DNA of 64,000 bases from positions 9,290-73,289 of the forward strand of contig CAWHED010000005.1 in NCBI GenBank assembly GCA_963828395.1, given 5' to 3'. The number at the start of each line of letters is the position of its first letter. Positions within the stretch are counted from its first letter, which is position 1. Of this stretch, positions 1 through 15,205 are shown piece after piece. Source of the DNA: an uncultured Bacteroidales bacterium (lineage in GTDB: Bacteria; Bacteroidota; Bacteroidia; Bacteroidales; VadinHA17). A model generated the notes under the pieces. It did not search any database. It saw nothing but the letters and a program-made list of their open reading frames with translations, and had not been told where the DNA came from. Made by a program: the position numbers and the translations under genes.

Positions 1-300
1 CCAAACAGTTCAATACCATGAGTTCTTGCAGTTTTCAAACAGTTGTGCAACCTGGTTCCTGGACAGTTCGTCCCGTATCTGCTTATCCTGATTTATAGTC
101 GGGATATTGTGATCGGCAACAGCAAGAGTCTTCTCCGGCCTGAAAACTCTTATACCTCTGTTATTAAGGCCGCTGAAGGCCTGGGGACTGGTGACCTCAT
201 GAATAAAGTGCTGATCAATATACAGCACGTCAAGGCCACCATCGATGTGACTCACCACATGATCATCCCAGATCTTATCAAAAAGTGTCTTTGCCTCCAT
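1..300 (-). CDS. leuC: 3-isopropylmalate dehydratase large subunit, N-terminal part. The gene runs off the window and has an apparent extra base near 22-24.
   Basis: ORF 10..300 starts MEAKTLFDKIWDDHVV and contains YIDQHFIHEVTSPQAF, typical of LeuC. After ENCK this frame hits TGA at 10-12, while the +1 frame continues THGIELF as expected for LeuC. Confidence 0.85.
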
Positions 301-342
301 TTAAAAATTATAGTTAACAGCCACCTTCCGGCGGGGTGCGGG

Positions 343-1836
343 TTACTTGATTTTATCGATAGCGTCAATAAAAGCTTCCACAGAAGCTGTGATTATATCT
401 GTATTGGCAGAAAAACCGTAGTAGGTTTTACCTTGGTGCTCAACCTGTATATGAACTTTCCCGATATCATCGCTGCCCTTTGTTATAGCCTGGATAAGAA
501 ACTCCTCCAGATGCACGGTCTTGCTTATCAATTGCCTGACCGCCGTAAAGGCAGCATCGATAGGCCCATTGCCTGATGAGGTGGCGGTATGGATTTCCCC
601 GTTTATCCTGATGCACACTGTTGCTACCGGTATCATTGATTTTCCGGATGTAACCTGCAACCGTTCCAGTTTAAGTGCTTTTTCTCCTTTGAAAACTTCG
701 CCGGAAAGGATCCTTATATCTTCATCGTTTATCTCCTTTTTCTTGTCGGCCATAACCAGGAAGCGATGATAGATGTCATCCAGTTCCTCCTTGCCAAACT
801 TCAGTCCAAGTAACTCAAGCCGGTGATTGAGAGCAGCTCTTCCGCTTCGTGCTGTAAGGATGATTGAAGATTCCCTTATGCCAACTTCCACAGGGTCAAT
901 TATTTCATAGTTCTCCCTGTTTTTGATAACCCCGTCCTGATGAATCCCTGATGAATGTGCAAATGCATTCCGTCCTACAATAGCTTTATTCGCCTGCACG
1001 GGCATGCTCATCAGGGTGGAGACGAGCCGGCTTGTACTGAAGATGAGCTTTGAATTTATGTTTGTTGTCAGGTTCAGATTGTGGTGGCTTTTAATTATCA
1101 TCGCCACCTCCTCGAGTGAAGTGTTACCCGCTCTCTCCCCGATACCGTTGATTGTTACCTCGACCTGCCGGGCTCCGTTAATGACACCCATCATTGTGTT
1201 TGCAGTAGCCATACCCAGATCATTATGGCAGTGGGTTGAAATCATGGCTTTTTCGATATTCGGTACATTTTCTTTCAGGAAACGGATCTTCTCACCGTAT
1301 TCTTCCGGGAGACAGTAACCTGTTGTATCCGGAATATTAACAACTGTTGCCCCGGCTTTTATTACAGCTTCAATTACCCTTGCCAGGTATTCGTTTTCGC
1401 TTCTTCCCGCGTCTTCAGCATAAAATTCCACATCATCGACAAATTTTTTTGCATACTTAACAGCATCCACAGCTCTTTTAATTGTCTCTTCAGGTGTTAT
1501 TTTGAGCTTGTACTTTATGTGAAAGGGGGAGGTACCGATACCTGTATGTATTCGCTTCTTTTTTGCATACTGAAGAGCCTCTGCGGCAACCTCAATATCT
1601 TTTTTCACAGCCCTGGTCAATGCGCAGATAATGGGATCAGAAATTGCTTTCGATATCTCAACCACTGACTGGAAATCTCCCGGACTTGAAACAGGGAATC
1701 CGGCCTCAATAATATCGACACCCAGCGCTTCAAGAGCCCGGGCGACTTCAATTTTTTCTATTGTATTAAGCTGGCACCCGGGAACCTGCTCACCATCCCT
1801 GAGGGTGGTGTCAAAAATAATTATCCTGTCGTTCAT
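343..1836 (-). CDS. leuA: 2-isopropylmalate synthase
   Basis: ORF 343..1905. The conserved N-terminus [17 protein letters not shown] begins at the ATG at 1836. It lies downstream of ilvC in the same operon. Confidence 0.93.
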
Positions 1837-1859
1837 CTTTGTATTTTTTATACCCATGT

Positions 1860-2903
1860 TTATTTTCCGGGCCTGAGTTTTCTGACCATTGCACCTGCCT
1901 GCCACATTTCTGAATTGTGCAGTTCATCAAGTTCAGTGGTCAGCTTTTCCCGGTAATCAGGCTGTCTGTTTGCTTCAATAGTTATCCTGGCTTCATTGCC
2001 GCTGGCTACGCTTTCATACAGTTTGTCAAATACGGGAGCAACAGCATCGCGAAACTTGTTTTTCCAGTCGAGAGCACCTCTCTGGGCTGTTGTTGAGCAA
2101 TTGGCATACATCCAATCCATTCCGTTTTCTGCAACAAGAGGGAGAAGGCTCTGTGATAATTCCTCCACAGTTTCATTGAAAGCCTCGGACGGGGAATGAC
2201 CCTTTTTTCGCAGAAGATTATACTGTGCTTCCATTATGCCTGCAATGGCACCCATAAGAACGCCTCTTTCCCCTGTAAGATCGCTGTATACTTCCTTTTT
2301 AAAGTCAGTTTCAAAAAGATATCCGGAACCAACTCCGATGCCCAGGGCAAATACCCTTTCCCGGGCTTTTCCTGTAGCATCCTGGTACACTGCATAGCTT
2401 GAATTGAGTCCTTTCCCTTCAAGGAAAAGACGGCGAAGGGATGTTCCCGAACCCTTGGGTGCAATCAGGATCACGTCAACATCCGCAGGTGGCACAATGC
2501 CGGTCTGATCATTGAATGTTATGCCGAAACCATGAGAAAAATAAAGGGCTTTTCCCTTCGTAAGGTGCTTCTTCACCACCGGCCACGAAGCAATCTGTCC
2601 GGCATCAGAAAGAAGGTATTGAATTATTGTACCTCTTTTGCATGCCTCCTCGATTTCGAAAAGATCATTACCTTCTTCCCATCCGTCCCTGACGGCTTTG
2701 TCCCAGGAAGAGGAATTCTTCCTCTGGCCAACAATTACATTAAGCTCGTTGTCTTTCAGGTTAAGCGACTGGCCTGGACCCTGGACGCCGTATCCTATTA
2801 CGGCAATTACTTCATTTTTTAAGACCTCACGGGCCTTTGAGAGCGGGAATTCAGCCCTGGTTACCACATTTTCAGTTACGCCTCCAAAATTTATTTTTGC
2901 CAT
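1860..2903 (-). CDS. ilvC: ketol-acid reductoisomerase
   Basis: 347 aa with the Rossmann segment [21 protein letters not shown]. The size matches class I ketol-acid reductoisomerases. Confidence 0.95.
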
Positions 2904-2933
2904 GATTTCCGGTTATTTGATTATTATCAGTTC

Positions 2934-3494
2934 TTAATTAACAATTTCAATTTCCTGCGGTTCCGGGCGCTTTGCCTCATCCATCTCCTTCAGGTAAGAA
3001 TTTAATTCCTTTACCTGCTTTGTGATTGCCACACGTCCTGACCTTACAAACTGCAAGACTCCGTAAGGCCCGAGCTGGCTCAGCAGATCAGTTATTTCAG
3101 CTTTGTGCCCGGTTTTTTCGATAACGACATATTCGGGAGTGACTTCAAGTATACGGGCATGATGTCCCCGGACAATATGATCAATGATATTTCCCGACAT
3201 TAATCCCCGTGTTGCAACTTTGAACATCGCTATTTCCTGATAAATTATTTCATCGGATGTGTGCACAAAGACCTTCAGTACGTCAACCAGCTTTTCCATT
3301 TGCCTGGTCACTTTTCTTACCATTTCCGGAGATGTAATAACTACCAGCGTCCACAGATGTACACCGGAGACGGCAGATTCAGAAGCTGTTATGCTCTCTA
3401 TATTTATTTGCCTCCTGGTAAGGATTATTGTTATCTGATTAAGTATACCGATGTGATTCTCGGTAAAAAGTGACAAAGTATATTCGTTTTTCAT
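2934..3494 (-). CDS. ilvN: acetolactate synthase small (regulatory) subunit
   Basis: 186 aa with an N-terminal ACT-like segment YTLSLFTENHIGILNQITIILTRRQINIESI. It sits directly downstream of the large subunit gene. Confidence 0.9.
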   Translation of the reverse strand: MKNEYTLSLFTENHIGILNQITIILTRRQINIESITASESAVSGVHLWTLVVITSPEMVRKVTRQMEKLVDVLKVFVHTSDEIIYQEIAMFKVATRGLMSGNIIDHIVRGHHARILEVTPEYVVIEKTGHKAEITDLLSQLGPYGVLQFVRSGRVAITKQVKELNSYLKEMDEAKRPEPQEIEIVN

Positions 3495-3506
3495 GTTTCC
3501 GTTGTT

Positions 3507-5246
3507 TTAATTTGTCAGTCTTACATCCGAAACTGATGAACCCGGTTCGACCATTGGCAGAACATTTGCTTCCTTGCAAATCGTAACGTCAAGCAGGTAA
3601 GGCACATCTGCGGCAAGCATCTCTGCCAGTGTTTTTTCAAGATCCCTTCTTGCCGATACTTTCTTTGAGTTAATATTAAATCCCTCGGCTATCTTGATAA
3701 AATCAGGGTTGACCAGGGCAGTCGAGGCATATCGTTTATTGTAGAACATATCCTGCCATTGCCTGACCATCCCGAGAAAACTGTTATTCAGGATAATTAT
3801 CTTAACAGGAATCTGATACTGAAGAATGGTTCCAAGTTCCTGGATTGTCATCTGGAAGCCTCCGTCACCAAGGAATACCACAACCTGTTTATCAGGTCTT
3901 CCGATTTTAGCGCCAATAGAAGCCGGAAGTCCAAAGCCCATCGTTCCCATACCACCTGATGTCACCAGGCTGTTTGGATTTTTAAATTTATAATACCGGG
4001 CGGCAGACATCTGGTTTTGTCCCACATCTGTAACAATTATAGCATCCCCGTGTGTCAGGTCCGACACCAGCCGGACAACTTCACCCATTCTGATCTCACC
4101 CGATTCTGGTTCTGTCTCGGACCTTATGACCTTTTCATATTCTGTTTTATCACATATTCGGAATTCCCTGATCCATTTTGCAAATGAGTTTTCTTTCACC
4201 AGGGGTATCAGGTATCGTAACACTTCACGGGCATCATTATTTATTTCAAGATCGACCTGTACATTTTTATTGATTTCTGCTTCGTCTATTTCGATATGTA
4301 TTATCCTGGCGTTCTTTGCATATTTCTTCAGGTTGCCTGTTACACGGTCATCAAAACGCATTCCCACGGCAATTATAAGGTCAGCCTGATTTGTAAGAAT
4401 ATTTGGGCCGAAGTTACCGTGCATGCCAAGCATTCCTGCATATAATCTGTGACCATAAGGAAAGGCTGAGAGACCCAGCAGGGTCAGGGCAACAGGTATT
4501 CCGGTTTTCTCGGCAAATTCTTTAAGTTCATTTTCCGCACCTGAGAGAAGGACCCCATGCCCGGCAAGGATTAAAGGTTTTTCAGCATGGTTGATCATTA
4601 TGGCTGCTGATTCTATCTCCCTGGTATGCAATGGTATCCTGGGGTTATAGCTTCTCAGGTATTCACATTTATTGTATCTGAAACTGAGTTTTTCAATCTG
4701 GGCATCTTTGGCCACATCAATCAGGACCGGTCCGGGACGTCCCGATTTTGCAATATAAAATGCCTTTGCTATCGTGTCGGGTATATCCTCCGCTCTTTTG
4801 ACCTGGCAGTTCCATTTTGTGACCGGCATTGAAACACCAAGAATGTCAGTCTCCTGAAATGCGTCTGTCCCTATCAGGTTTGATACCACCTGTGCGGTTA
4901 TGAAAACAACTGGAACTGAATCAAGGAAGGCGTTTGCAATACCTGTAACCAGGTTTGTTGCCCCGGGACCGGATGTTGCGAAGCAGACCCCCGGCTTTCC
5001 GGTCACCATTGCATAAGCCTGAGCTGCATGCGCAGCTCCCTGTTCATGACGGGTAAGTATATGACGGAGCTTATCTTCATAATCAAGCAGTTTGTCATAA
5101 ACAGGCATGATGGCACCTCCCGGATATCCGAATATAGTGTCCACCCCTTCCTGAATGAGACACTTGAGCAGCGCTTCAGCTCCTGAAATCTGCTCCTTAC
5201 CGTTTGTCTTTTCAGCTACTGATTGTATTATTTGTTTGCTTTTCAT
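3507..5246 (-). CDS. ilvB: acetolactate synthase large (catalytic) subunit
   Basis: ORF 3507..5324 contains [30 protein letters not shown] and the ThDP motif [16 protein letters not shown] prefer the ATG at 5246 (MKSKQII) because the longer ORF overlaps the ilvD stop. Confidence 0.93.
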
Positions 5247-5316
5247 TTTAAGTTTTGCTTGGTCCTGATTATTTTGTCTCTTTCTGCCCCATTCTCCATG
5301 CACCATGCCCTGTGCT

Positions 5317-7143
5317 TCATACAATTCTCACCGCTCCCTTGTCAGCTGAGCTTACTGTTGCAGCATAGGCTTTTAGTGAAGACGGTATTTCACGCCGGCA
5401 ATTCTTTGGCCTGTAGGCCATTTCTCCTTTTGCTTCTTCCTCTTTATGTCTTTTAATAATCTCATTTTCAGAAATGTTAACATTTATCTTCCGGTTTTCA
5501 ATATCAATGTCTATCCGGTCTTCTTCTCTGAGAAGTGCAATTTCTCCTCCGGCAGCAGCCTCCGGGGAGACATGCCCGATTGAAAGTCCGGAAGTACCGC
5601 CTGAAAAACGGCCATCGGTTATTAAGGCACATTTCTTATCAAGACCTTTTGATTTCAGGTAGGAGGTAGGATAGAGCATCTCCTGCATTCCGGGTCCTCC
5701 TTTCGGACCTTCGTACCTGATCACGATCACATCTCCTGCGCGCACCTTGTCATTCAGAATTCCTTCCACAGCTTCTTCCTGTGATTCGAAGATCACTGCA
5801 TGACCTGAAAATGTAAAGATTGAAGGGTCAATGCCTGCTGTTTTGACTATGCATCCGTTTTTTGCAATGTTTCCATAGAGGACAGCAAGACCACCTTCTT
5901 TGTTGTAGGGATATTTTATACTTCTTATACATCCGTTTTCCCTGTCGGTATCAAGTGTGTCGTAAAGAGTGTCCTGAGAAGCCAATTCAAGGCTTCTCTT
6001 CATCCCCGGAGCGCTTCTGCAGTATTCATATGCGAGCTGCAATGCCTTTTCTCCCGAAATATCCCAGTCAGAAATTGCATCATGAAGGGTTGGATAATCT
6101 ATCCTTTTTACAGAGCTGTCTATCAGATTGTTCCGTTCCAATTCACCAAGAATGGCAAAAATACCTCCGGCACGATTTACATCCTGTATATGATATTTCG
6201 AACTTGGAGAAACTTTACATAATGTGGGTATTGAACGGGAAAGCAGATCAATATCTTTCATGGAAAAATCAACACCGGCTTCATGTGCAATCGCAAGAAG
6301 GTGAAGAACGGTATTTGTTGACCCCCCCATTGCAATATCCAGCGACATGGCGTTTTTAAATGCCTGCCTGGTTGCTATTGACCTCGGAAGAACGGTGTCA
6401 TCACCCTCGTTGTAGTATCTGTTCGCCAGATCAACTATCAGCCTCGCAGCTTTCTCAAAAAGCCTCATTCTATTTTGATGTGTGGCTACTATTGTTCCAT
6501 TACCCGGAAGTGCCAGACCCAGCGATTCATTCAGGCAATTCATTGAATTCGCCGTGAACATACCTGAACAAGAGCCGCATGTTGGACATGCCGCCATTTC
6601 AATATTATTAAGATCTTTATCACTTACTGAACTGTCAGCAGCAGATACCATTGCATCTATCAGGTCGAGAGACCTGTTGTTGTAATTTCCAGCCTCCATC
6701 GGTCCGCCGGAAACAAATACCGCGGGTATGTTAAGCCTCATGGCAGCCATCAGCATGCCGGGGGTGATCTTGTCGCAATTACTGATACAGATCATTGCAT
6801 CTGCACGATGCGCATTGCACACATACTCGACACTGTCGGCAATAAGCTCTCTCGAAGGTAAAGAATAGAGCATCCCTTCGTGGCCCATGGCAATGCCGTC
6901 ATCAATTGCTATTGTATTGAATTCAGCTGCGAAGAGGCCAAGTTTCCCAATCTCTTTTTTAATGATCTGGCCAATGTTATGAAGATGGACATGTCCCGGA
7001 ACGAACTGGGTAAATGAGTTTACAATAGCAATGACCGGTTTTCCGAAGTGTTCATCTTTCATGCCATTAGCACGCCAGAGGCTTCTTGCGCCGGCCATGT
7101 TCCTTCCTGTGACCGTTATTGCACTCCTGAGTTGATTCTTCAT
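5317..7143 (-). CDS. ilvD: dihydroxy-acid dehydratase
   Basis: 608 aa with the IlvD/Edd motifs [18 protein letters not shown] and [22 protein letters not shown]. Confidence 0.95.
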
Positions 7144-7160
7144 AGGTCCAAAAACACATT

Positions 7161-7194
7161 AAAAAAAAAGCTTCCCGGATTTCCGGAAAGCTTC
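7161..7194 (-). terminator. intrinsic terminator 17 nt upstream of the ilvD start codon (attenuator terminator)
   Basis: The minus-strand RNA reads GAAGCUUUCCGG-AAAU-CCGGGAAGCUU followed by U9. The stem is fully paired only on the minus strand, with one G-U pair. Confidence 0.8.
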
Positions 7195-7227
7195 TGTATA
7201 CTTATTGTGTTACATATTTTTCCCGGA

Positions 7228-7284
7228 TCAACTGCTTGCGGCAATGATAGTGAGGGAAATAATATATAATATAGATTTCACCAC
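7228..7284 (-). promoter_or_regulatory. putative ilv-leu leader peptide ORF (18 codons, GTG start)
   Basis: The minus strand reads GTG GTG AAA TCT ATA TTA TAT ATT ATT TCC CTC ACT ATC ATT GCC GCA AGC AGT TGA, which translates to VVKSILYIISLTIIAASS (5 Ile, 2 Leu, 2 Val). The UCCGGGAA right after the stop can pair with UUUCCGGA, the left arm of the terminator. Confidence 0.45.
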
Positions 7285-7306
7285 TTATTCATTAATAATT
7301 GAGGTT

Positions 7307-7336
7307 CAAAAGTACATAATTTTATTACAAACCAAA
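7307..7336 (-). promoter_or_regulatory. Bacteroidota-type promoter for the ilv leader
   Basis: The minus strand has TACTTTTG (a TAnnTTTG -7 box, plus-strand 7307-7314). TTTG elements lie 13 and 18 nt upstream, at plus-strand 7328-7331 and 7333-7336. Confidence 0.5.
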
Positions 7337-7354
7337 TTAATTATCAATTTTTCT

Positions 7355-7769
7355 TTATTTCGTAATTCTTAAGTCGAGAAAAATTGAAATTATTTTATGT
7401 ACTATAATTCTTAAAATAACCACATTACCTTTCCGGGAAAGCAACAATAAATTATGCAGTATTATTTTTTGGCTCTTCTGAATTCCCCTGCCGCCGAGAA
7501 AGCCCCAGCCACCACTGCCAAGAATGAACCCCAGTGCATAGAAACCTCCGTTGTTGTTCTGTGCATACATAGTGATCTCATCACTGAAGAGCATGCCTAT
7601 AAGATCAAACGGAGCTATAAATCCATGCCATAAGCCACCTAGGAAGCCATAAGTATGACCGGTAAGGCATTGGCCAACTGACTTCATACTGGGCACATCC
7701 TGTGACAAACAACAGAATGACTACAGCTACTGAAAGCAAGAAACGTTTTTGTGAAAATAGAGTTTTCAT
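7355..7769 (-). pseudogene. small Gly-rich membrane lipoprotein, apparently frameshifted
   Basis: The ATG at 7769 opens MKTLFSQKRFLLSVAVVILLFVTGC, a lipoprotein signal peptide. Near 7688 the sensible reading moves to ORF 7355..7708 (MKSVGQCLTGHTYGFLGGLWHGFIAPFDLIGMLF...GSGGWGFLGG). The 415-nt span is 3n+1. Confidence 0.5.
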
Positions 7770-7844
7770 AATCCGGTTATTGTTGGTTATACAGCAACAA
7801 GTTAGACTAAAAAACCAAGAAAAGTATTATGAACAGGCTGCTTA

Positions 7845-9039
7845 TTACCCCAGGACTCCCAGTTCGCGTCCGACTTTTGTGAAAGCTGAGATTGCCTTGT
7901 CAAGATGTTCTCTTTCATGCGCAGCCGAAAGCTGCACCCTGATTCGTGCCTGACCCTTGGGTACTACCGGATAATAAAATCCGATTACATAAATACCCTC
8001 GCTGAGCAGTCTTGAGGCCAGTTCCTGCGCAAGCTTCGCATCATAGAGCATCACGGCGCAAATAGCCGATTGCGTGGGTTTAATGTCAAAACCTGCTTTC
8101 AGCATCTTTTCAACAAAATATTCAGTATTGTTATGAAGCTTGTCCTGCAGCTCATTGGTCTCAGTCATCATCTCAAGCATCCTGGTCCCTGCCGCAGCCA
8201 CCATCGGAGGGATGGAGTTGGAGAACAGATATGGCCGTGAGCGCTGGCGAAGCATCTCAATGATCTCTCTTGCGCCCGGTGGTGAAGCCTCCTATGGCTC
8301 CGCCGAAAGCCTTGCCGAGGGTGCCGGTGATTATCTCGATCTTTCCCCTGAGGTTATACAAGCTCGGTGACACCGTCGTCCTGTTTTTCCTACCACACCG
8401 GCTGAATGTGATTCGTCAACCATGACCATGGCGTTGTATTTCCCGGCGAGCTCATAAATCTTACCAAGCGGGGCCACATTACCGTCCATTGAAAAAACGC
8501 CATCGGTGACAATAAGACGGAAGCGTTGTTCCTGGGCCAGCTGCAGTTGTGTCTCAAGGTCTTCCATGTCAGCGTTCTCATACCGGTACCGCTGTGCCTT
8601 GCACAGGCGCACCCCGTCAATGATGGAGGCATGATTCAGAGAGTCCGAGATTATTGCATCTTCACTTGTAAGCAACGGTTCAAACACCCCGCCGTTGGCA
8701 TCAAAGCATGCCGCGTACAGAATGGTGTCTTCAGTACCGAAAAACTCAGCTATCTCCTTTTCCAGCTCCTTATGAAGATCCCCCGTACCGCAGATGAACC
8801 GTACTGATGACATGCCGTAACCATGTGTGTCAAGAGCATGTTTTGCAGCTTCGACCAAGCTTTTTACTTGCAGACAGCCCAAGGTAGTTGTTTGCACAGA
8901 AATTAAGTACTGTCTGACCGGAATCAAGCGTGATCTCAGCACCCTGCGGTGACACAATTACACGTTCATTCTTATAAAGCCCGGCCTCTTTTATTTCCCT
9001 GAGCTGGATACCGAGATAATCCTGGTAATTATTGTACAT
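7845..9039 (-). pseudogene. kbl: glycine C-acetyltransferase (2-amino-3-ketobutyrate CoA ligase), broken by four single-base insertions
   Basis: Fragments 8830..9099, 8331..8957 and 7845..8255 join to a canonical Kbl. Recognisable segments are [82 protein letters not shown] and GFYYPVVPKGQARIRVQLSAAH. Frame changes are near 8863, 8374, 8362 and 8268. The 1195 nt equal 3n+1, consistent with four insertions. Confidence 0.9.
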
Positions 9040-9161
9040 CTGATTACAGTATTCACAAAAACGGATGCAAAGATGGTGTTTTAGCAGCTGATTATTCAAT
9101 GATGATAATCATCCATCTCAGCTTAGTAATTAACAGGATTGTCTATCCGGCAGCGAGGTTG

Positions 9162-10410
9162 TTACTGCCCGTATTTTTCTATAATCTGTTCTTTTGTAAG
9201 TCCGAGTATGTCATATTTTATGCCTGTTTTAATGAATGCAGACAGGGCTTTGTCGAGGTGGCTGATTTCGTGACCTGCACTTATCTGGGTTCTTATCCTC
9301 GCCTGTCCGTTGGGAACAACAGGGAAGAAGAAACCTATCGCGTAGATGCCCTCATTATAAAGATCCTTTGAAAAGTCCTGTGACAGTTTTGCATTGAAAA
9401 GCATTACCGGAACAATTGGGGTGTTGCCGTCTTTCAGGATAAACCCTGCTTCCGTAAGTCCTTTCCGCCAGTAGGCTGCGTTTTTCTCAAGCTTATCGCG
9501 CCTCTCCGTGCTTGATGAGAGGATATCAAATACCTTCAGTACGCCTGATACAATGACCGGTGCAATGGTATTTGAAAAAAGGTAGGGGCGTGCCTTCTGC
9601 CGGCACATATCAACTATTTCCTTCCTTCCTGAGACGCAGCCTCCTGACGCTCCTCCAAGAGCTTTACCAAAAGTCGTGGTTATAATATCAATCTTACCGA
9701 AGACTTTACAAAACTCATGTGTTCCGCGACCTGTTTTTCCGATGAAAGCCTGTAGCATGCGAATCATCCACAAGCAGCATTGCTCCGTATTTTTCACACA
9801 GATTCACCATTTCATCGAGTCTGGCGGTATCTCCATCCATTGAGAAAACTCCGTCAGTGATAACCAGCTTCAGCCGTTTGTCTGCATGCAGCATGAGTTT
9901 CTCCTCCAGGTGCTCCATGCTCGAGTGCTTGAAGGTATCGTGTTGTGCGCTGCAGAGCCTCATTCCATCGATAATTGAAGCATGAACGAGCCTGTCGGAT
10001 ATCATTATGTCCTCACTGGTGAGTATAGCTTCGAAGACACCGGCATTGGCATCCATGCATGAAGGGAATAGTATTGTGTCTTCGGTGCCGAGAAATTCCG
10101 TCACCTTGTTTTCCAGCTCCCGGTGAATATCCTGTGTTCCACATATAAAACGAACGGAAGACATGCCGTAACCCCTGCTCCCAAGTCCGTCATGAGCTGC
10201 TTTGATCACCTCCGGGTGGCTTGAGAGGCCAAGGTAGTTGTTCGAGCACATGTTAATGACCTTTTTGAGGTCAGAACCTGCAGGGAACTCGACTTCAATA
10301 TCGGCTGCCTGTGCACTGTGTATGAACCGCTCCTCCTTGAAAATGCCGGCGATTTTTATCTCTGCCAGTTGTGCCTGGTAGATATCTCTGGTTTTTTCAG
10401 TGTAGCTCAT
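9162..10410 (-). pseudogene. Kbl/BioF-family alpha-oxoamine synthase paralogue (PLP-dependent), one frameshift
   Basis: Fragments 9715..10410 and 9162..9797 contain [71 protein letters not shown] (PLP lysine) and GFFFPVVPNGQARIRTQISAGH. The frame change is near 9745. The 1249 nt equal 3n+1. Confidence 0.88.
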
Positions 10411-10422
10411 GATATCCTGGAT

Positions 10423-10686
10423 TTATTTGTTCAGATATTGATTTACCAGCCCCACTATGTTGTTCACGCTGTCAAAGGCTTCAGGTGTTGCTTTGCTTGG
10501 CGGTATCTTGATTTTGAATTTATTCTCAAGAAAAACAAGAAGTGAGACCATCGAGAATGAGTCGACATATCCGCTTGAGATCAGTGGTGTTTCATACGTA
10601 ATCTTGACATCCTCATCATCAACATATTCCTTTACAACATATTTAAGGATCATCTCCTTCATCTCATTCAGGGCATTTTCTTCCAT
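10423..10686 (-). CDS. acyl carrier protein (phosphopantetheine-binding)
   Basis: 87 aa and acidic, with the carrier-protein serine motif SSGYVDSFSMVSLLVFLE. Confidence 0.8.
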   Translation of the reverse strand: MEENALNEMKEMILKYVVKEYVDDEDVKITYETPLISSGYVDSFSMVSLLVFLENKFKIKIPPSKATPEAFDSVNNIVGLVNQYLNK

Positions 10687-10729
10687 AATTGATATCTATT
10701 AAGTTAAAGAACAAAAATAGTCAAATGGT

Positions 10730-12452
10730 TTAATCATTTTCAAGAGTTGAGATGTCACCAACCTCCTCGCCCCACTCCCTGGCATGAAGAACTCTCCTCA
10801 TGATTTTTCCACTGCGCGTTTTGGGCAGGTTTTCGACAAATTCAACAGCCTGGGGCATGGCCATAGGTGACAGTCTTTTTCTGATGAAGTTCATAATATC
10901 AAGCTCAAGGTCCGGCCCCGGGATAAATCCAGGTTTAAGGGTTATGAATGCCTTAACGACTTCCATGTTGATCTCATCCGGTTTTGAGGTGACGGCTGAC
11001 TCGCCGACGGCAGGATGTTCCAGAAGAGCCGATTCGACTTCAAACGGACTCACAAGGTGCCCGGCGGTGTTGATTACATCATCGTCACGCCCTATGAACC
11101 AGAAATAGCCTTCATTGTCAATAGTTGACCTGTCGCCGGAGAGATACCATCCGTTCACAAATTTTTCCCGGTACTTTTCTTCATTTCTCCAGTACGTTCT
11201 CATCATTGCGGGCCAGCCCGGCCTGAAGGCGATCAGGCCTGCCTTGCCAGGCTCGGTCAGCGGAACAAATGTCACAGGGTCAAGCACCGTGGCGGTGATG
11301 CCCGGAAAAGGTTTTCCCATTGACCCGGGCTTGATCTTCATGCCCGGGAAGTTGGTGATCATGATCGAGCCCGTTTCTGTCTGCCAGAACGTATCGTGAA
11401 AAGGTTTGCCGAATACTCTCTGCGACCAGATCACTGCCTCAGAATTTAAGGGCTCGCCAACGCTTGCCAGGTGACGAAGTGAGGTGAGATCAAAATTTTT
11501 CACAACCTCATCTCCGGCTTTCATCAGCGACCTTATGGCTGTGGGAGCGGAGTACCACACCGTTACCCTGTACTTCTCAATGAACCTGTACCAGGCCTGT
11601 GCCGAGAACCCAGTATCAAGGACGCATTGTGTAGCCCCAAGACTCCATGGCCCAATTATTCCGTATGATGTTCCGGTGACCCATCCGGGATCGGCCGTGC
11701 ACCAGTAAATATCCTCATCATGCAGGTCCAGGACCCACTTGGTTGTAAGATATTGTGAAATAAGCGAATAATGAACATGCTTTACTCCCTTGGGCTGTCC
11801 TGTTGTGCCTGATGTATAATGCAGTACGGAAGGTGACTCGGCAGTGGCAGGAAAGACATCAAAATGCTCAACCGGCTTTGAATCATCAAGGCTGAAGAGT
11901 ACTTCCCCTTTTTTCAGTTCGCCAGGTTTTACGGCGTCAACAATAATCACAAATTCAAGACCGGGAAGCCTTGAACGGATCTTCCTGACTTTTGACAGGT
12001 GTTTCTTCTGGGTAATGACAGCTCTTGTGTGTGCATTCTCCAGTCTTACGAACGAAAGAATCTTCACCGAAAGCTGAGAAGAGAGGCTGTACAATAGCTC
12101 CGGTCTTAAGGATACCGAGAAATGAGAGATATAGTTCGGGTATCCTGTCCATGAAAAGACACACCCTGTCACCATCTGTAATGCCAAGCTTACGCAGAAA
12201 AGTGCCGATGGTATTTCCGGCAAGCCTGATGTCATTAAACGTATATTTTTTTTCAATTCCCCCAAACCCTTCATAAAAAAGGGCTGTCTTATCTGCGTTC
12301 CCCTTATCGCAGATCCTGTCGGAACAATACCATCCGATGTTGATAATATCACCATGATTGTACTCCAGATCTTTCTCTGCTATGCTCCAGTCGAAATCTC
12401 TGGTCAGTTCTTCATATGTCGGATGTTCAGCCATGAGAGTTCTCTTTGACAT
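10730..12452 (-). pseudogene. AcsA-type acetyl/short-chain acyl AMP-forming ligase, one frameshift
   Basis: Fragments 11955..12452 and 10730..12355 contain YTSGTTGQPKGV, FWQTETGS, YLSGD, GRDDDVINTAGH and PKTRSGKIMRR, with tail GDISTLEND. The join SAFGEDS / RLENAHTRAVIT resembles Bacillus AcsA. The frame change is near 12047. The 1723 nt equal 3n+1. Confidence 0.88.
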
Positions 12453-12483
12453 TAAGTTAGGACTATTTTATAATATGGCATCA

Positions 12484-12517
12484 CTTTAGCTCACTCCGAA
12501 CTTTAGCTCACTCCCAA
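12484..12517. repeat. 17-bp tandem direct repeat covering the tdh stop codon
   Basis: CTTTAGCTCACTCCGAA (12484-12500) is followed by CTTTAGCTCACTCCCAA (12501-12517), identical at 16 of 17 positions. Confidence 0.9.
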
Positions 12518-13542
12518 CTCAGGATTACTTTCCCGCAGTTCCCTTCCTCCATGACGTCAAAACCCTTCTGGAACTCATCGATATGGAATCGGTGGGTGAT
12601 GATCGGTTCAAGGTTAATACCGCCGATGATCATCATCTGCATCTTGTACCATGTCTCCCACAGCTCGCGGCCATATATACCTTTCAGTGTCAGTGCCTTG
12701 AAAATTATATCGCTCCACGGAACCTCGAAGTTTGAAGGAAGGATCCCCAGCAGGGCTATGTTTGAACCGTTGTACATGTTTGCTATCATCTCCCGGAAGG
12801 CGGCGGGTGAACCCGACATCTCCAGCCCCACATCGAAGCCTTTCATGTGAAGAGGCTCGAGCACATCATGTATTTTTTGTCCTTTCTTAGGGTTAATCAC
12901 CATGGTGGCGCCCATTTTTTTTGCCAGCTCCAGCCGGTAGTCGCTCAGGTCACTGGCTACCACATTACGTGCTCCGGCAAACCTTGCAATGGCAACAGCC
13001 ATGCTTCCTATCAGCCCTGATCCTGTTATCAGGACATCCTCACCGAGCAGGGGAAAGGCCAGTGCAGTATGAGTGGCATTGCCGAACGGGTCCATTATGG
13101 CAGCCCATTCGTCAGGGATGCGGTGGTCAAGCAGCACGACATTCCTTGCCGGCACACGGACATACTCGGCAAACGACCCGTCGATATTTACTCCTATGCC
13201 TATAACGTTTTCGCATACATGTTCCCTCCCCCTGCGGCAGTTGCGGCACACGCCGCAGAAGAGATGCCCCTCACCCGTCACCCTGTCGCCAACCTTCACG
13301 TTGGTCACGCCTGGTCCGGCCTGCTCTACATAACCCATATACTCATGACCGATGGTCATCGGCACCTTGATGGTTTTCTGCGCCCACTCATTCCATTCGT
13401 AGATATGCAGGTCGGTGCCGCAGATAGCCGACTTTTTCACCTTTATGATGACATCATTATAACCCGGTTCCGGAATATCCACTTCCTGCATCCATAAACC
13501 CTTCGCAGCCTCAGCCTTGACAAGAGCCTTCATCTTCTTCAT
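12508..13542 (-). CDS. tdh: L-threonine 3-dehydrogenase (Zn-dependent MDR family)
   Basis: 344 aa and intact, with ICGTDLHIYEWNEWAQ, GHEYMGYV and the structural Zn Cys cluster CGVCRNCRRGREHVC. Confidence 0.9.
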   Translation of the reverse strand: MKKMKALVKAEAAKGLWMQEVDIPEPGYNDVIIKVKKSAICGTDLHIYEWNEWAQKTIKVPMTIGHEYMGYVEQAGPGVTNVKVGDRVTGEGHLFCGVCRNCRRGREHVCENVIGIGVNIDGSFAEYVRVPARNVVLLDHRIPDEWAAIMDPFGNATHTALAFPLLGEDVLITGSGLIGSMAVAIARFAGARNVVASDLSDYRLELAKKMGATMVINPKKGQKIHDVLEPLHMKGFDVGLEMSGSPAAFREMIANMYNGSNIALLGILPSNFEVPWSDIIFKALTLKGIYGRELWETWYKMQMMIIGGINLEPIITHRFHIDEFQKGFDVMEEGNCGKVILSWE

Positions 13543-13603
13543 AATGCTATTCTATTCTTTAAATCGTTATAATGTAAATTTAATACAAAAAGAGGAGTTT
13601 GTT

Positions 13604-13611
13604 TATCTTTG
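13604..13611 (+). promoter_or_regulatory. candidate -7 promoter box upstream of gltX
   Basis: TATCTTTG matches TAnnTTTG and lies about 68 nt upstream of the gltX ATG. Confidence 0.3.
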
Positions 13612-13678
13612 CCCGTACCGGCGCTTAATTTGAGTGTCGCATTGTATTATTTTGATTGTTTCTTTAAAGGTTACACAC

Positions 13679-15205
13679 ATGACTGACACGAAAATACGTG
13701 TGCGTTTTGCTCCCAGTCCCACCGGACCGCTGCATATCGGCGGAGTACGCACAGCACTCTATAATTATCTTTTTGCAAAACATTTTGACGGGGTATTTAT
13801 CCTCAGGATTGAAGACACCGATCAGGCCCGCTATGTAGAGGGTGCCGAAGAGTATATCATTGAAGCTCTCGGATGGGCGGGAATAAAAATTGACGAGGGA
13901 ATCAGGGAGGGTGGTCCTCATGCACCTTACCGCCAGAGTGAAAGAAAAGAGATCTATCACCAGTATGCTGAACAGCTGCTCAGCACCGGCGATGCCTATT
14001 ATGCTTTTGACGCTCCTGAAGAGCTGGAGAAGCTGAGACAGGAATATGAAGCACGCGGTGAGACATTCAATTACGGGTGCACCACGCGTAAGGGTATGTG
14101 CAACTCTCTCACCCTGAACTCTGAGGAAGTTAAAAAGAGGATCGCCTCCGGCGATCACTATGTGGTCAGGTACAGGATGCCTGAGAATGAAGACATTCAC
14201 TTCACTGACATTATAAGGGGAGAGATCGTTGTCAACACCTCAACCCTTGACGATAAGGTGCTGTACAAGTCCGACGGCATGCCTACCTATCACCTGGCAA
14301 ACATCGTGGATGATCATCTGATGGAGATATCACATGTTATCAGGGGCGAAGAGTGGCTTCCTTCCCTGCCTCTTCATGTGCTGCTGTATCGTTCCTTCGG
14401 GTGGGAGGCACCGCTGTTTGCCCACCTGCCGCTGCTGCTCAAACCGACGGGCAAGGGCAAGCTCAGCAAACGCGACGGCGACAAGATGGGCTTCCCTGTC
14501 TTTCCGCTCTACTGGCCTTACGGTGAGACGGCAACAGGCTACCGCGAGGAGGGCTACTTCCCTGAAGCCTTTGTGAATATGCTTGCACTGCTGGGATGGA
14601 ACCCGGGAACGGAACAGGAGCTATTCTCCATGGAAGAGCTGATACATGACTTCTCAATTGACAGGGTAGGTAAATCAGGCTCCCGCTTCGATCCCGAAAA
14701 GGCAAAGTGGTTCAATCATCAGTATATGCAGCGGAAGAGCACTGAAGAACTCGCCGGGTTATTTGCCCCGATTCTCAGAGAGAAGGGATTCAATCCTTCG
14801 CATGAAAGCCTGATGAAGCTTGTTTCGATGGTCAGGGAGAGAGCAACATTCGTAACAGACCTTTGGAAGGAAGCTGATTTTTTCTTCGTTGCACCTGATT
14901 CATACGATGAGAAAGAACTGAAAAAAAGATGGGATGACAGGACGGCTGAGATGATCAGATCTCTTCGCGGATTGGTTGCTTCATTTCAGGTATTTACTCC
15001 GGAGGAGATGGAAAAGGATGTAAGGGAATGGGTAAATGCAAACGGATATAATACCGGTAATGTATTCAATATGTTCAGGTTACTGTTAGTGGGAGCCTGC
15101 CGCGGCCCGCGTCTCTTTGACATTGCGGAATGGCTGGGCAGGGAGGAGACCCTTCGCAGGCTTGATACCGGACTCAGAAAGCTGGCACCCGGATATGATG
15201 CTTAA
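13679..15205 (+). CDS. gltX: glutamate--tRNA ligase
   Basis: ORF 13634..15205. The conserved start is MTDTKIRVRFAPSPTGPLHIGG (HIGH motif), and the KLSKRDG (KMSKS) motif is present. Confidence 0.95.
   Translation: MTDTKIRVRFAPSPTGPLHIGGVRTALYNYLFAKHFDGVFILRIEDTDQARYVEGAEEYIIEALGWAGIKIDEGIREGGPHAPYRQSERKEIYHQYAEQLLSTGDAYYAFDAPEELEKLRQEYEARGETFNYGCTTRKGMCNSLTLNSEEVKKRIASGDHYVVRYRMPENEDIHFTDIIRGEIVVNTSTLDDKVLYKSDGMPTYHLANIVDDHLMEISHVIRGEEWLPSLPLHVLLYRSFGWEAPLFAHLPLLLKPTGKGKLSKRDGDKMGFPVFPLYWPYGETATGYREEGYFPEAFVNMLALLGWNPGTEQELFSMEELIHDFSIDRVGKSGSRFDPEKAKWFNHQYMQRKSTEELAGLFAPILREKGFNPSHESLMKLVSMVRERATFVTDLWKEADFFFVAPDSYDEKELKKRWDDRTAEMIRSLRGLVASFQVFTPEEMEKDVREWVNANGYNTGNVFNMFRLLLVGACRGPRLFDIAEWLGREETLRRLDTGLRKLAPGYDA

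Follow-up and report, generated by a model that had tools for sequence, protein, structure and literature searches.

A probable acetyl-carrier-protein route between threonine, glycine, and acetate hidden under routine annotations in uncultured anaerobic bacteria

Why would an operon that encodes L-threonine 3-dehydrogenase (Tdh) and glycine C-acetyltransferase (Kbl) also encode a ligase, a carrier protein, and a second Kbl-like enzyme? This question is raised by a 64,000-nucleotide stretch of DNA from an uncultured Bacteroidales bacterium (contig CAWHED010000005.1, positions 9,290 to 73,289), which we refer to as the window. An open reading frame (ORF) table and three-frame translation reveal five genes on the minus strand between positions 7845 and 13542, in the order tdh, LIG, ACP, PAR, and kbl, where LIG denotes an AMP-forming ligase, ACP an acyl carrier protein, and PAR a Kbl paralogue. 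We conclude that the three inserted genes probably belong to an undescribed route that uses acetyl-ACP to connect threonine with glycine and acetate and that routine annotations conceal. The five genes are as follows.

12508-13542, minus strand: tdh, Zn-dependent (medium-chain dehydrogenase/reductase, MDR) L-threonine 3-dehydrogenase, 344 amino acids (aa), intact
10730-12452, minus strand: LIG, AcsA-type AMP-forming ligase, 567 aa after removal of an extra base at about 12054
10423-10686, minus strand: ACP, acidic DltC/PltL-type carrier of 87 aa with a VDSFSM motif, intact
9162-10410, minus strand: PAR, Kbl-like alpha-oxoamine synthase, 415 aa, one extra base at about 9748
7845-9039, minus strand: kbl, canonical glycine C-acetyltransferase, about 396 aa, four extra bases

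The intergenic gaps are, in order, 55, 43, 12, and 122 nucleotides; the first grows to 73 if LIG begins at position 12434, which comparison with orthologues makes likelier than 12452. All five genes, their order, and their spacing agree with an original prediction made from the letters of the window, and every motif it listed is present (FWQTETGS, GDISTLEND, TTFGKALGG, CMDANAG versus CFDANGG, and RLVHASIIDG). The outer two genes match curated models. Over its full length, the tdh product scores 529.3 bits with NF003808 (cut-off 380) and 472.6 bits with TIGR00692 (cut-off 458). TIGR01822 is the top model for all three kbl fragments, and the encoded protein is 58% identical to Escherichia coli Kbl.

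We tentatively propose, at somewhat less than even confidence, that the trio constitutes a carrier-protein-dependent version of the Kbl step, wherein acetate is loaded, condensed with glycine, and the resulting keto acid is passed on to threonine. Specifically, LIG would charge the phosphopantetheine arm of the carrier (acetate + ATP + holo-ACP ⇌ acetyl-S-ACP + AMP + PPi). PAR, with the catalytic apparatus of Kbl retained and the surface that binds the adenosine of coenzyme A (CoA) rebuilt, would then use acetyl-ACP in place of acetyl-CoA (acetyl-S-ACP + glycine ⇌ 2-amino-3-ketobutyrate + holo-ACP), and Tdh would reduce the product (2-amino-3-ketobutyrate + NADH ⇌ threonine + NAD+). The preferred direction would be to load and condense, giving a net conversion of glycine, acetate, ATP, and NADH to threonine, while the canonical CoA-using Kbl would run alongside PAR. 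Such a scheme would be closed, with no further conserved enzyme needed in either direction. We infer the use of acetate and glycine as substrates, the role of ACP as the thiol, and the direction of the reaction; the fate of the keto acid is the least certain step.

The genomic distribution of the trio bears directly on whether its members act together. We scanned one genome per species with the repaired PAR as the query and six PAR peptide patterns, which yielded at least 555 confirmed matches, and examined the best 80 loci (L001 to L080). All 80 come from metagenome-assembled or single-cell genomes, and the loci carry about eight phylum labels, including Bacteroidales/Rikenellaceae, Cloacimonadota, Neomarinimicrobiota, Aminicenantes/Acidobacteriota, Zixiibacteriota, Ignavibacteriales, Delongbacteria, KSB1, and Gemmatimonadota. 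In the 70 loci where the upstream sequence extends 2.3 kb or more, PAR is directly preceded on its own strand by ACP in all 70 and by LIG in 69, and the gap between ACP and PAR is often 8 to 25 nucleotides. The reverse test, in which metagenome contigs were searched with LIG as the query, gave a similar picture: ACP follows LIG in 67 of 68 loci, and PAR is found in 46 of 55. LIG-ACP-PAR is a fixed cassette whose recurrence is far beyond chance.

Clustering of the neighboring ORFs also revealed that a gene for holo-ACP synthase (AcpS) immediately precedes LIG in 27 of the 60 genome loci that extend at least 4.5 kb upstream. The same arrangement occurs in 23 of 52 metagenome loci; the 64-kb window itself holds no gene for a phosphopantetheinyl transferase (PPTase). 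These arrangements bear on the simplest alternative, which is that the annotations are right: LIG would be an ordinary acetyl-CoA synthetase, PAR a CoA-dependent isozyme of Kbl, and ACP a passenger or a component of some other process. Both enzymes score above the curated equivalog cut-offs of NCBIfam, and public records carry the names "glycine C-acetyltransferase" and "acyl carrier protein." However, the tight and nearly invariant adjacency of ACP in both searches and across phyla, as well as the frequent presence of AcpS, is not what this alternative predicts, and we consider it very unlikely.

What the cassette acts on is suggested by its other neighbors. A threonine dehydrogenase is encoded nearby in 43 of the 60 loci, if a KSB1 enzyme that passes the Tdh model is counted. 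In 30 loci, 28 of them from Bacteroidota, this enzyme is of the Zn/MDR type found in the window. In 13 others, mostly from other phyla, it is the unrelated short-chain dehydrogenase/reductase (SDR) type of 316 to 320 aa, whose best solved relatives are 7ol1 and 2yy7 (E values of 1e-130 to 1e-107). The linkage on which the original prediction depended therefore extends beyond the window: in Bacteroidota the trio is syntenic with tdh and kbl, and in other phyla with the gene for SDR-type Tdh. The occurrence of two Tdh folds beside one cassette is a case of non-orthologous displacement within the same context. Because two non-homologous dehydrogenases adjoin the same cassette, the shared Tdh product, 2-amino-3-ketobutyrate, is likely to be the compound on which the cassette acts, and we regard this as the strongest evidence for that role. 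A second, canonical Kbl is encoded adjacent to the cassette in 42 of the 60 loci.

Two further arrangements were observed among these loci. In five from Aminicenantes (L040, L047, L049, L065, and L073), a YdfG-like SDR of 240 to 293 aa lies near the cassette; its top model is NADP-dependent 3-hydroxy acid dehydrogenase (278 bits versus a cut-off of 411), and it could be a third type of dehydrogenase that serves the cassette. An activated-sludge contig (L091:2763-7283) carries tdh-lig-acp-kbl without PAR, and its canonical kbl begins 95 nucleotides after ACP.

How does PAR differ from Kbl? An intact orthologue (P0002, 98% identical to the PAR of the window) scores 564.3 bits with TIGR01822 (cut-off 493) and 562.6 bits with NF005394 (cut-off 460), compared to 675.6 and 631.6 bits for an intact orthologue of the canonical kbl product, placing PAR about 110 bits lower on the former model. 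PAR sequences are 76 to 97% identical to each other across lineages (median 83%). They are 51 to 56% identical to the characterized Kbls of E. coli, C. necator, and Coxiella and to 7V58, and 50 to 56% identical to the canonical Kbls encoded in their own genomes and to everything else beyond the 417- to 419-aa group described below. Canonical Kbls share only about 52% identity with PAR and 54 to 95% with one another (median 63%). PARs cluster tightly in a clade of their own and do not group with experimentally characterized Kbls. Between phyla, identities are 80 to 86% for PAR, 70 to 76% for LIG, 55 to 68% for ACP, and 54 to 62% for canonical Kbl, and 242 of the 415 PAR positions are at least 97% conserved. 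As a separate observation, PAR identities look star-like and do not track taxonomy, and the rate at which PAR evolves is far below that of its partners, a pattern that may reflect strong constraint or horizontal transfer.

Assignments of PAR as a sphingolipid, sulfonolipid, BioF, 5-aminolevulinate synthase (ALAS), or CqsA enzyme were ruled out by profile hidden Markov model scores. For serine palmitoyltransferase (Spt), for example, PAR scores 307.6 bits with NF047600 (cut-off 640), 274.9 with NF047599 (cut-off 500), and 225.6 with NF047603 (cut-off 670). Its nearest relatives form a third Kbl-like clade of 417 to 419 aa, 61 to 62% identical to PAR (L061:9288-10547, L063:9309-10568, L064:1964-3223, and L074:9316-10569). 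These proteins share the PAR insertion noted below and part of the PAR signature, and they retain LNHAS and CFDAN. In Delongbacteria-type loci, PAR is immediately followed by the gene for this third protein and then by one for a 1250-aa Ser/Thr-kinase-like protein.

An alignment of 77 PAR and 49 canonical Kbl sequences separates what is retained from what has changed. The lysine that binds pyridoxal 5'-phosphate (PLP), the stacking histidine, the Asp/His pair, the carboxylate-binding arginine, and the NNYLGL motif are invariant in all 77 PARs and identical to those of E. coli Kbl. At about 45 other positions, PAR has an invariant residue that differs from that of Kbl, including a valine that replaces the asparagine preceding the PLP-stacking histidine and a methionine that replaces the phenylalanine of CFDANGG. 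PAR also has a five-residue insertion (EFPxG) and a C-terminal extension relative to Kbl. One set of differences is clustered: at positions +7, +11, +14, +15, and +16 from the stacking histidine, canonical Kbls carry V, K, R, Y or F, and R (47 to 49 of 49 sequences), whereas PARs carry M or I, mostly S, H, D, and T (60 to 77 of 77 sequences).

In Rhodobacter capsulatus ALAS, Lys156, at position +14 from His142, lines the adenosyl pocket and makes a hydrogen bond to the ribose of succinyl-CoA, and the second adenosyl-pocket position mutated in the same study is at +7 (PMC4615937). By residue spacing to ALAS, PAR thus appears to lack the basic residues that would face the nucleotide part of CoA. 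Pantetheine bound to ACP lacks the nucleotide part that faces that pocket. Because the glycine- and carboxylate-binding residues are kept and the clade-specific changes align with the CoA-adenosine pocket of ALAS, what changed in PAR is probably the thiol carrier and not the amino acid. We predict that PAR is an acetyl-ACP-dependent glycine C-acetyltransferase. The replacement of the adenosyl-pocket equivalents in all PARs is also difficult to reconcile with a CoA-dependent isozyme. An AlphaFold2 model of P0002, built with 23 homologues that are 88 to 99% identical, was unusable (mean pLDDT 41.6).

These findings also bear on the product that the original prediction had envisioned, namely a small aminoketone made from an acyl-ACP and an amino acid, perhaps not acetate and glycine, and serving as a signal or specialized metabolite. 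The order of PPTase, ligase, carrier, and alpha-oxoamine synthase is typical of biosynthetic loading, the clade-specific invariant residues of PAR could reflect a new activity, and aminoacetone derived from the Tdh reaction is known to feed pyrazines and 3,5-dimethylpyrazin-2-ol (DPO). However, although altered substrate-lining segments had been taken to imply a new amino acid, the clade-specific changes align instead with the CoA-adenosine pocket of ALAS, and all the residues by which Kbl binds glycine and its carboxylate are present. The extreme conservation of PAR across about eight phyla, with a ratio of nonsynonymous to synonymous substitution rates (dN/dS) of 0.03, looks like primary metabolism rather than signaling. 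Clustering of ORFs around the PAR loci revealed no conserved tailoring, regulatory, or export genes beside the cassette, and the acid-binding pocket of LIG, described below, equals that of acetyl-CoA synthetase (Acs). We therefore consider an aminoketone product distinctly unlikely.

The ligase would set the acyl group. The top model for LIG is NF003313 / PRK04319, an AcsA-type acetate-CoA ligase (629 and 104 bits for the two pieces), and an intact orthologue scores 738.8 bits against a cut-off of 729. This marginal pass, by about 10 bits, is itself a point against LIG being an ordinary acetyl-CoA synthetase. The top match among solved structures is Bacillus subtilis AcsA (PDB 9g79; 574 bits, E value of 2e-171). 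Among 66 sequences, LIG proteins conserve the motifs GWVTG, SVGEP, (Y/F)WQTETG, and PKTRSGKIMRR. They also keep the acetate-pocket residues V310, T311, V386, and W414 of Salmonella enterica Acs, together with the catalytic Lys609 and R584, whose roles we take to be those described for Acs. Because the acetate pocket is conserved, the expected substrate is a C2, or at most C3, acid. LIG proteins form a clade of their own in which identity is at least 70%, and we predict from these features that LIG is an acetate:holo-ACP ligase. In motif A8, LIG has GHLVSP where AcsA has GERVGP or GHRLG, and the equivalent of S. enterica Acs Arg526 is an invariant leucine. The leucine was considered as a mark of ACP specificity and dropped, since it is common in representatives of other AcsA-like clusters formed at 50% identity.

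ACP barely exceeds the threshold for PF00550 (21.4 bits; cut-off 20.8), and its nearest sequences in the PDB are 6cxt, DltC, PltL, and PigG. The VDSFSMVSL segment that bears the serine for phosphopantetheine attachment is at least 95% conserved in 56 orthologues, which have a median pI of 4.2. By sequence, this carrier resembles DltC, PltL, and PigG more closely than it does the ACPs of fatty acid synthesis. A match to "ACP for OlsHI," which belongs to a planctomycete ornithine-lipid pathway of the GH3 type, is unrelated (51 bits versus a cut-off of 130). Indirect evidence that LIG loads ACP comes from the fixed adjacency of the two genes, from AcpS upstream of LIG, and from a sister system in which the pair serves another client.

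In the sister system, LIG-ACP is accompanied by a gene for an MBOAT O-acyltransferase (PF03062), which lies downstream in five loci and is divergent in L105.

L101, 300-4999: LIG-ACP with MBOAT downstream
L112, 4001-8530: LIG-ACP with MBOAT downstream
L119, 3983-8530: LIG-ACP with MBOAT downstream
L105, 1337-6010: LIG-ACP with divergent MBOAT
L114 and L115: LIG-ACP with MBOAT downstream

After the MBOAT gene comes one for a protein of about 300 aa with a hydrophobic start and no Pfam match. These loci lie in polysaccharide-synthesis neighborhoods and are without PAR, Tdh, or Kbl; conversely, the window has no MBOAT homologue. The MBOAT-linked LIGs form one small clade nested within the PAR-linked LIGs of Bacteroidales, to which they are 83 to 87% identical. 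This exceeds the 70 to 76% identity between the PAR-linked LIGs of Bacteroidales and those of other phyla. The MBOAT-linked ACPs are 72 to 82% identical to the cassette ACPs. Movement of the LIG-ACP pair into this context without PAR is not expected if LIG were a plain acetyl-CoA synthetase with a passenger carrier beside it. By analogy, the sister system looks like a Dlt-type pathway that would deliver acetyl instead of D-alanyl groups. In such an MBOAT pathway, LIG-ACP would be able to act only as an acyl donor, which argues, indirectly but independently, that LIG loads ACP and that the loading direction is physiological.

In what direction, then, does the cassette operate? Three considerations favor loading. 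First, the sister system presents LIG-ACP as an acyl donor. Second, the order of PPTase, ligase, carrier, and condensing enzyme is the usual one for biosynthetic loading. Third, a private carrier that is kept acetylated by a ligase converting ATP to AMP and PPi can push an otherwise unfavorable condensation.

Several observations weigh against the proposed acetyl-ACP-dependent synthesis of threonine. Tdh and Kbl are known as a catabolic pair, as in the kbl-tdh operon of E. coli, and in Bacteroidota the keto acid would be cleaved again by the canonical Kbl that the operon also encodes. PAR remains above the curated cut-off for "glycine C-acetyltransferase" (564 versus 493), and LIG remains above that for "acetate-CoA ligase" (738.8 versus 729), so that both are compatible with the use of CoA. 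Furthermore, the mapping of the adenosyl pocket relies on residue spacing to ALAS and not on a structure. Finally, an ADP-forming acetyl-CoA synthetase (ACD family, about 700 aa) is encoded next to or near PAR in L041, L053, L057, L066, L078, L079, and L126, which carry labels of Ignavibacteriales, Zixibacteria, Aminicenantes, Gemmatimonadota, and Terriglobia, and transporters of the NhaC, SSS, or MFS type occur near PAR in some loci. The presence of ACD beside PAR in six to seven loci, along with some of these transporters, fits catabolism at least as well.

One possibility, therefore, is that the pathway runs in the opposite direction and conserves energy by cleaving threonine. Tdh would oxidize threonine, PAR and holo-ACP would convert the keto acid to glycine and acetyl-S-ACP, and a reversed LIG would regenerate the carrier (acetyl-ACP + AMP + PPi → acetate + ATP + ACP). 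In keeping with this idea, tdh operons that contain the cassette carry it either in place of Kbl or in addition to it, ACD genes lie directly downstream of PAR in L041, L066, L078, and L126, and the hosts are labeled as members of anaerobic, fermentative lineages. Moreover, no thioesterase or transacylase is conserved at the cassette loci, which would leave LIG as the sole means to recycle ACP, and Syntrophus aciditrophicus reportedly makes ATP with a reversed AMP-forming Acs. However, the near-identical LIG-ACP pair must load in the sister MBOAT system. The energetics are also marginal: a rough estimate from textbook free energies, with about +6 kJ/mol for the reverse Acs reaction, calls for an acetyl-ACP:ACP ratio of >100-3000 at millimolar acetate. 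In addition, Kbl together with either Pta-AckA or ACD would yield the same ATP without a carrier, leaving no evident advantage for ACP. On this evidence, we judge threonine cleavage by the cassette to be unlikely.

A different concern is whether the genes in the window are functional at all, given six frameshifts: one in LIG (about 12054), one in PAR (about 9748), and four in kbl (about 8858, 8376, 8361, and 8269). The two in the cassette are as follows.

12053-12055, minus strand: single extra base causing the LIG frameshift, extra relative to L001-L004, L081, and L082
9747-9749, minus strand: single extra base causing the PAR frameshift, regarded as an assembly artefact

If these changes were real, lig, par, and kbl would be pseudogenes and the pathway would be dead in this genome; the original prediction had recognized this risk for the ligase and the paralogue. 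The contrast between three adjoining genes with six frameshifts and unbroken large genes in other parts of the window might be taken to favor this outcome. However, all six are private +1 insertions relative to six relatives (L001-L004, L081, and L082). Two of these relatives are sister assemblies found by using ACP: L081, which matches at 96.8% identity over 10.8 kb, and L082, which matches at 93.8%. L081 has private extra bases of its own that break lig, ilvD, ilvB, and thiF and leave par and kbl intact, while those of L082 break gltX and kbl and leave lig and par intact. The genes broken by extra bases in the window are kbl, par, lig, tatD, tcdA, a beta-lactamase-like gene, and the 101-aa ORF noted below. 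With one or two exceptions, the frame changes in this part of the window resemble +1 insertions, and the errors cluster at 7.4 to 12.1 kb and 15.1 to 17.3 kb, with several genes of 3 to 4 kb intact elsewhere.

Selection points the same way. In comparison with L002, par and tdh (the latter with products that are 97% identical) give dN/dS values of 0.033 and 0.032, lig and acp both give 0.063, and intact neighbors give 0.04 to 0.22; values for the broken genes (0.03 to 0.13) are equal to those of intact neighbors. Purifying selection on the cassette genes is strong. Because essential genes that are "broken" in one assembly are whole in the next, the frameshifts are almost certainly long-read consensus errors, and lig, par, and kbl are almost certainly intact. 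Thus, these changes are assembly-private single-base insertions rather than signs of decay, and a dead pathway is extremely improbable.

Full-text literature searches returned no description of the LIG-ACP-PAR cassette or of the LIG-ACP-MBOAT sister system. There are, however, known systems that share some of their features. The closest is the Tdh-Kbl pathway (E. coli kbl-tdh; Kbl structures 1FC4, 7BXP, 7V58, and 3TQX), which likewise combines Tdh with a PLP-dependent glycine C-acetyltransferase. Unlike these Kbls, the PAR clade is more conserved and consistently preceded by a ligase and a carrier, and its predicted thiol is ACP rather than CoA. The Spt of Caulobacter and sphingomonads uses a dedicated ACP and an acyl-ACP synthetase, and this module resembles the cassette in its pairing of an ANL-family ligase and a dedicated carrier with an alpha-oxoamine synthase to which the carrier donates the acyl group. 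It differs in that the acyl group predicted here is C2 rather than long-chain, the synthase is Kbl-like, and the context is Tdh and Kbl rather than ceramide synthesis.

D-alanylation by DltA, DltC, DltB, and DltD provides another parallel, since the cassette ACP is most similar to carriers of the DltC/PltL type and the sister loci, with LIG-ACP, a DltB-like MBOAT, and the protein of about 300 aa, follow the gene logic of Dlt. In contrast to DltA, LIG is AcsA-like and predicted to use acetate, and the client of the carrier in the window is a soluble PLP enzyme and not an MBOAT. The reaction predicted for LIG is carried out by CitC (EC 6.2.1.22) of the citrate lyase system, which acetylates the carrier CitD (acetate + ATP + HS-carrier → acetyl-S-carrier + AMP + PPi), demonstrating that acetyl-carrier proteins exist in central catabolism. 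However, CitC is unrelated in sequence to LIG, CitD bears phosphoribosyl-dephospho-CoA rather than phosphopantetheine, and no lyase subunits are present here. B. subtilis AcsA matches LIG in length class, acetate pocket, catalytic lysine, and the PKTRSGKIMRR motif, but only the LIG clade is fixed beside an ACP.

Downstream of kbl on the same strand (650-7143) are ilvD, ilvB, ilvN, ilvC, and leuA, with a conserved 101-aa ORF (7355-7769, frameshifted in the window) between kbl and this cluster. Many of the closest relatives (among L001-L016) share the order kbl-ilv-leuA, and more distant Bacteroidales have a class II ribonucleotide reductase in place of the ilv-leuA cluster. On the upstream side are gltX, tatD, and tcdA, followed by genes for RND efflux, HflKC, PBP1A, and radical-SAM proteins. 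The rest of the window is unrelated to the five-gene operon. The spacer between tdh and lig contains a short repeat.

12482-12513, minus strand: two copies of the direct repeat GGAGTGAGCTAAAGT, overlapping the tdh stop codon

Relatives carry one to three variant copies of this repeat, with indels of 7 or 17 nucleotides in L002, L003, and L082. Rfam scans of window positions 7000-14500 (E ≤ 1) and of nine diverse loci (at the gathering threshold) found no riboswitch or leader, and a scan for sigma-70 promoters and terminators gave nothing interpretable. Exact-protein look-ups for the Tdh and ACP of the window found neither on record.

The broadest form of our proposal, which we consider possible but doubtful, is that hundreds of uncultured anaerobes, from about eight phyla, possess a primary route that interconverts threonine with glycine and acetate by way of acetyl-S-ACP rather than acetyl-CoA. 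It would have been overlooked because its members are automatically labeled "acetyl-CoA synthetase," "ACP," and "glycine C-acetyltransferase." In one version, this route would provide ATP-driven synthesis of threonine from glycine and acetate, independent of the aspartate pathway. In its mirror image, a carrier-protein thioester would support substrate-level formation of ATP. For the sister system, the MBOAT-linked LIG-ACP pair suggests an acetyl-ACP-dependent route for surface-polysaccharide acylation, a process whose cytoplasmic acyl donor has long been in doubt.

If the proposed function of the cassette is true, a textbook amino acid pathway would have a second, carrier-protein-based form in major uncultured anaerobic lineages, namely Bacteroidales, Aminicenantes, Zixibacteria, Marinimicrobia, Cloacimonadota, KSB1, Delongbacteria, and Gemmatimonadota. 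At present, models built from genomes interpret the trio as acetate assimilation plus threonine degradation, and both calls may be wrong. Two new enzyme specificities would be added, those of a Kbl that uses acetyl-ACP and of an ANL-family acetate:ACP ligase. The cassette would also represent a natural case in which a private carrier sets the direction of a reversible reaction that forms or breaks a carbon-carbon bond, a form of control that is of interest for making beta-hydroxy-alpha-amino acids.

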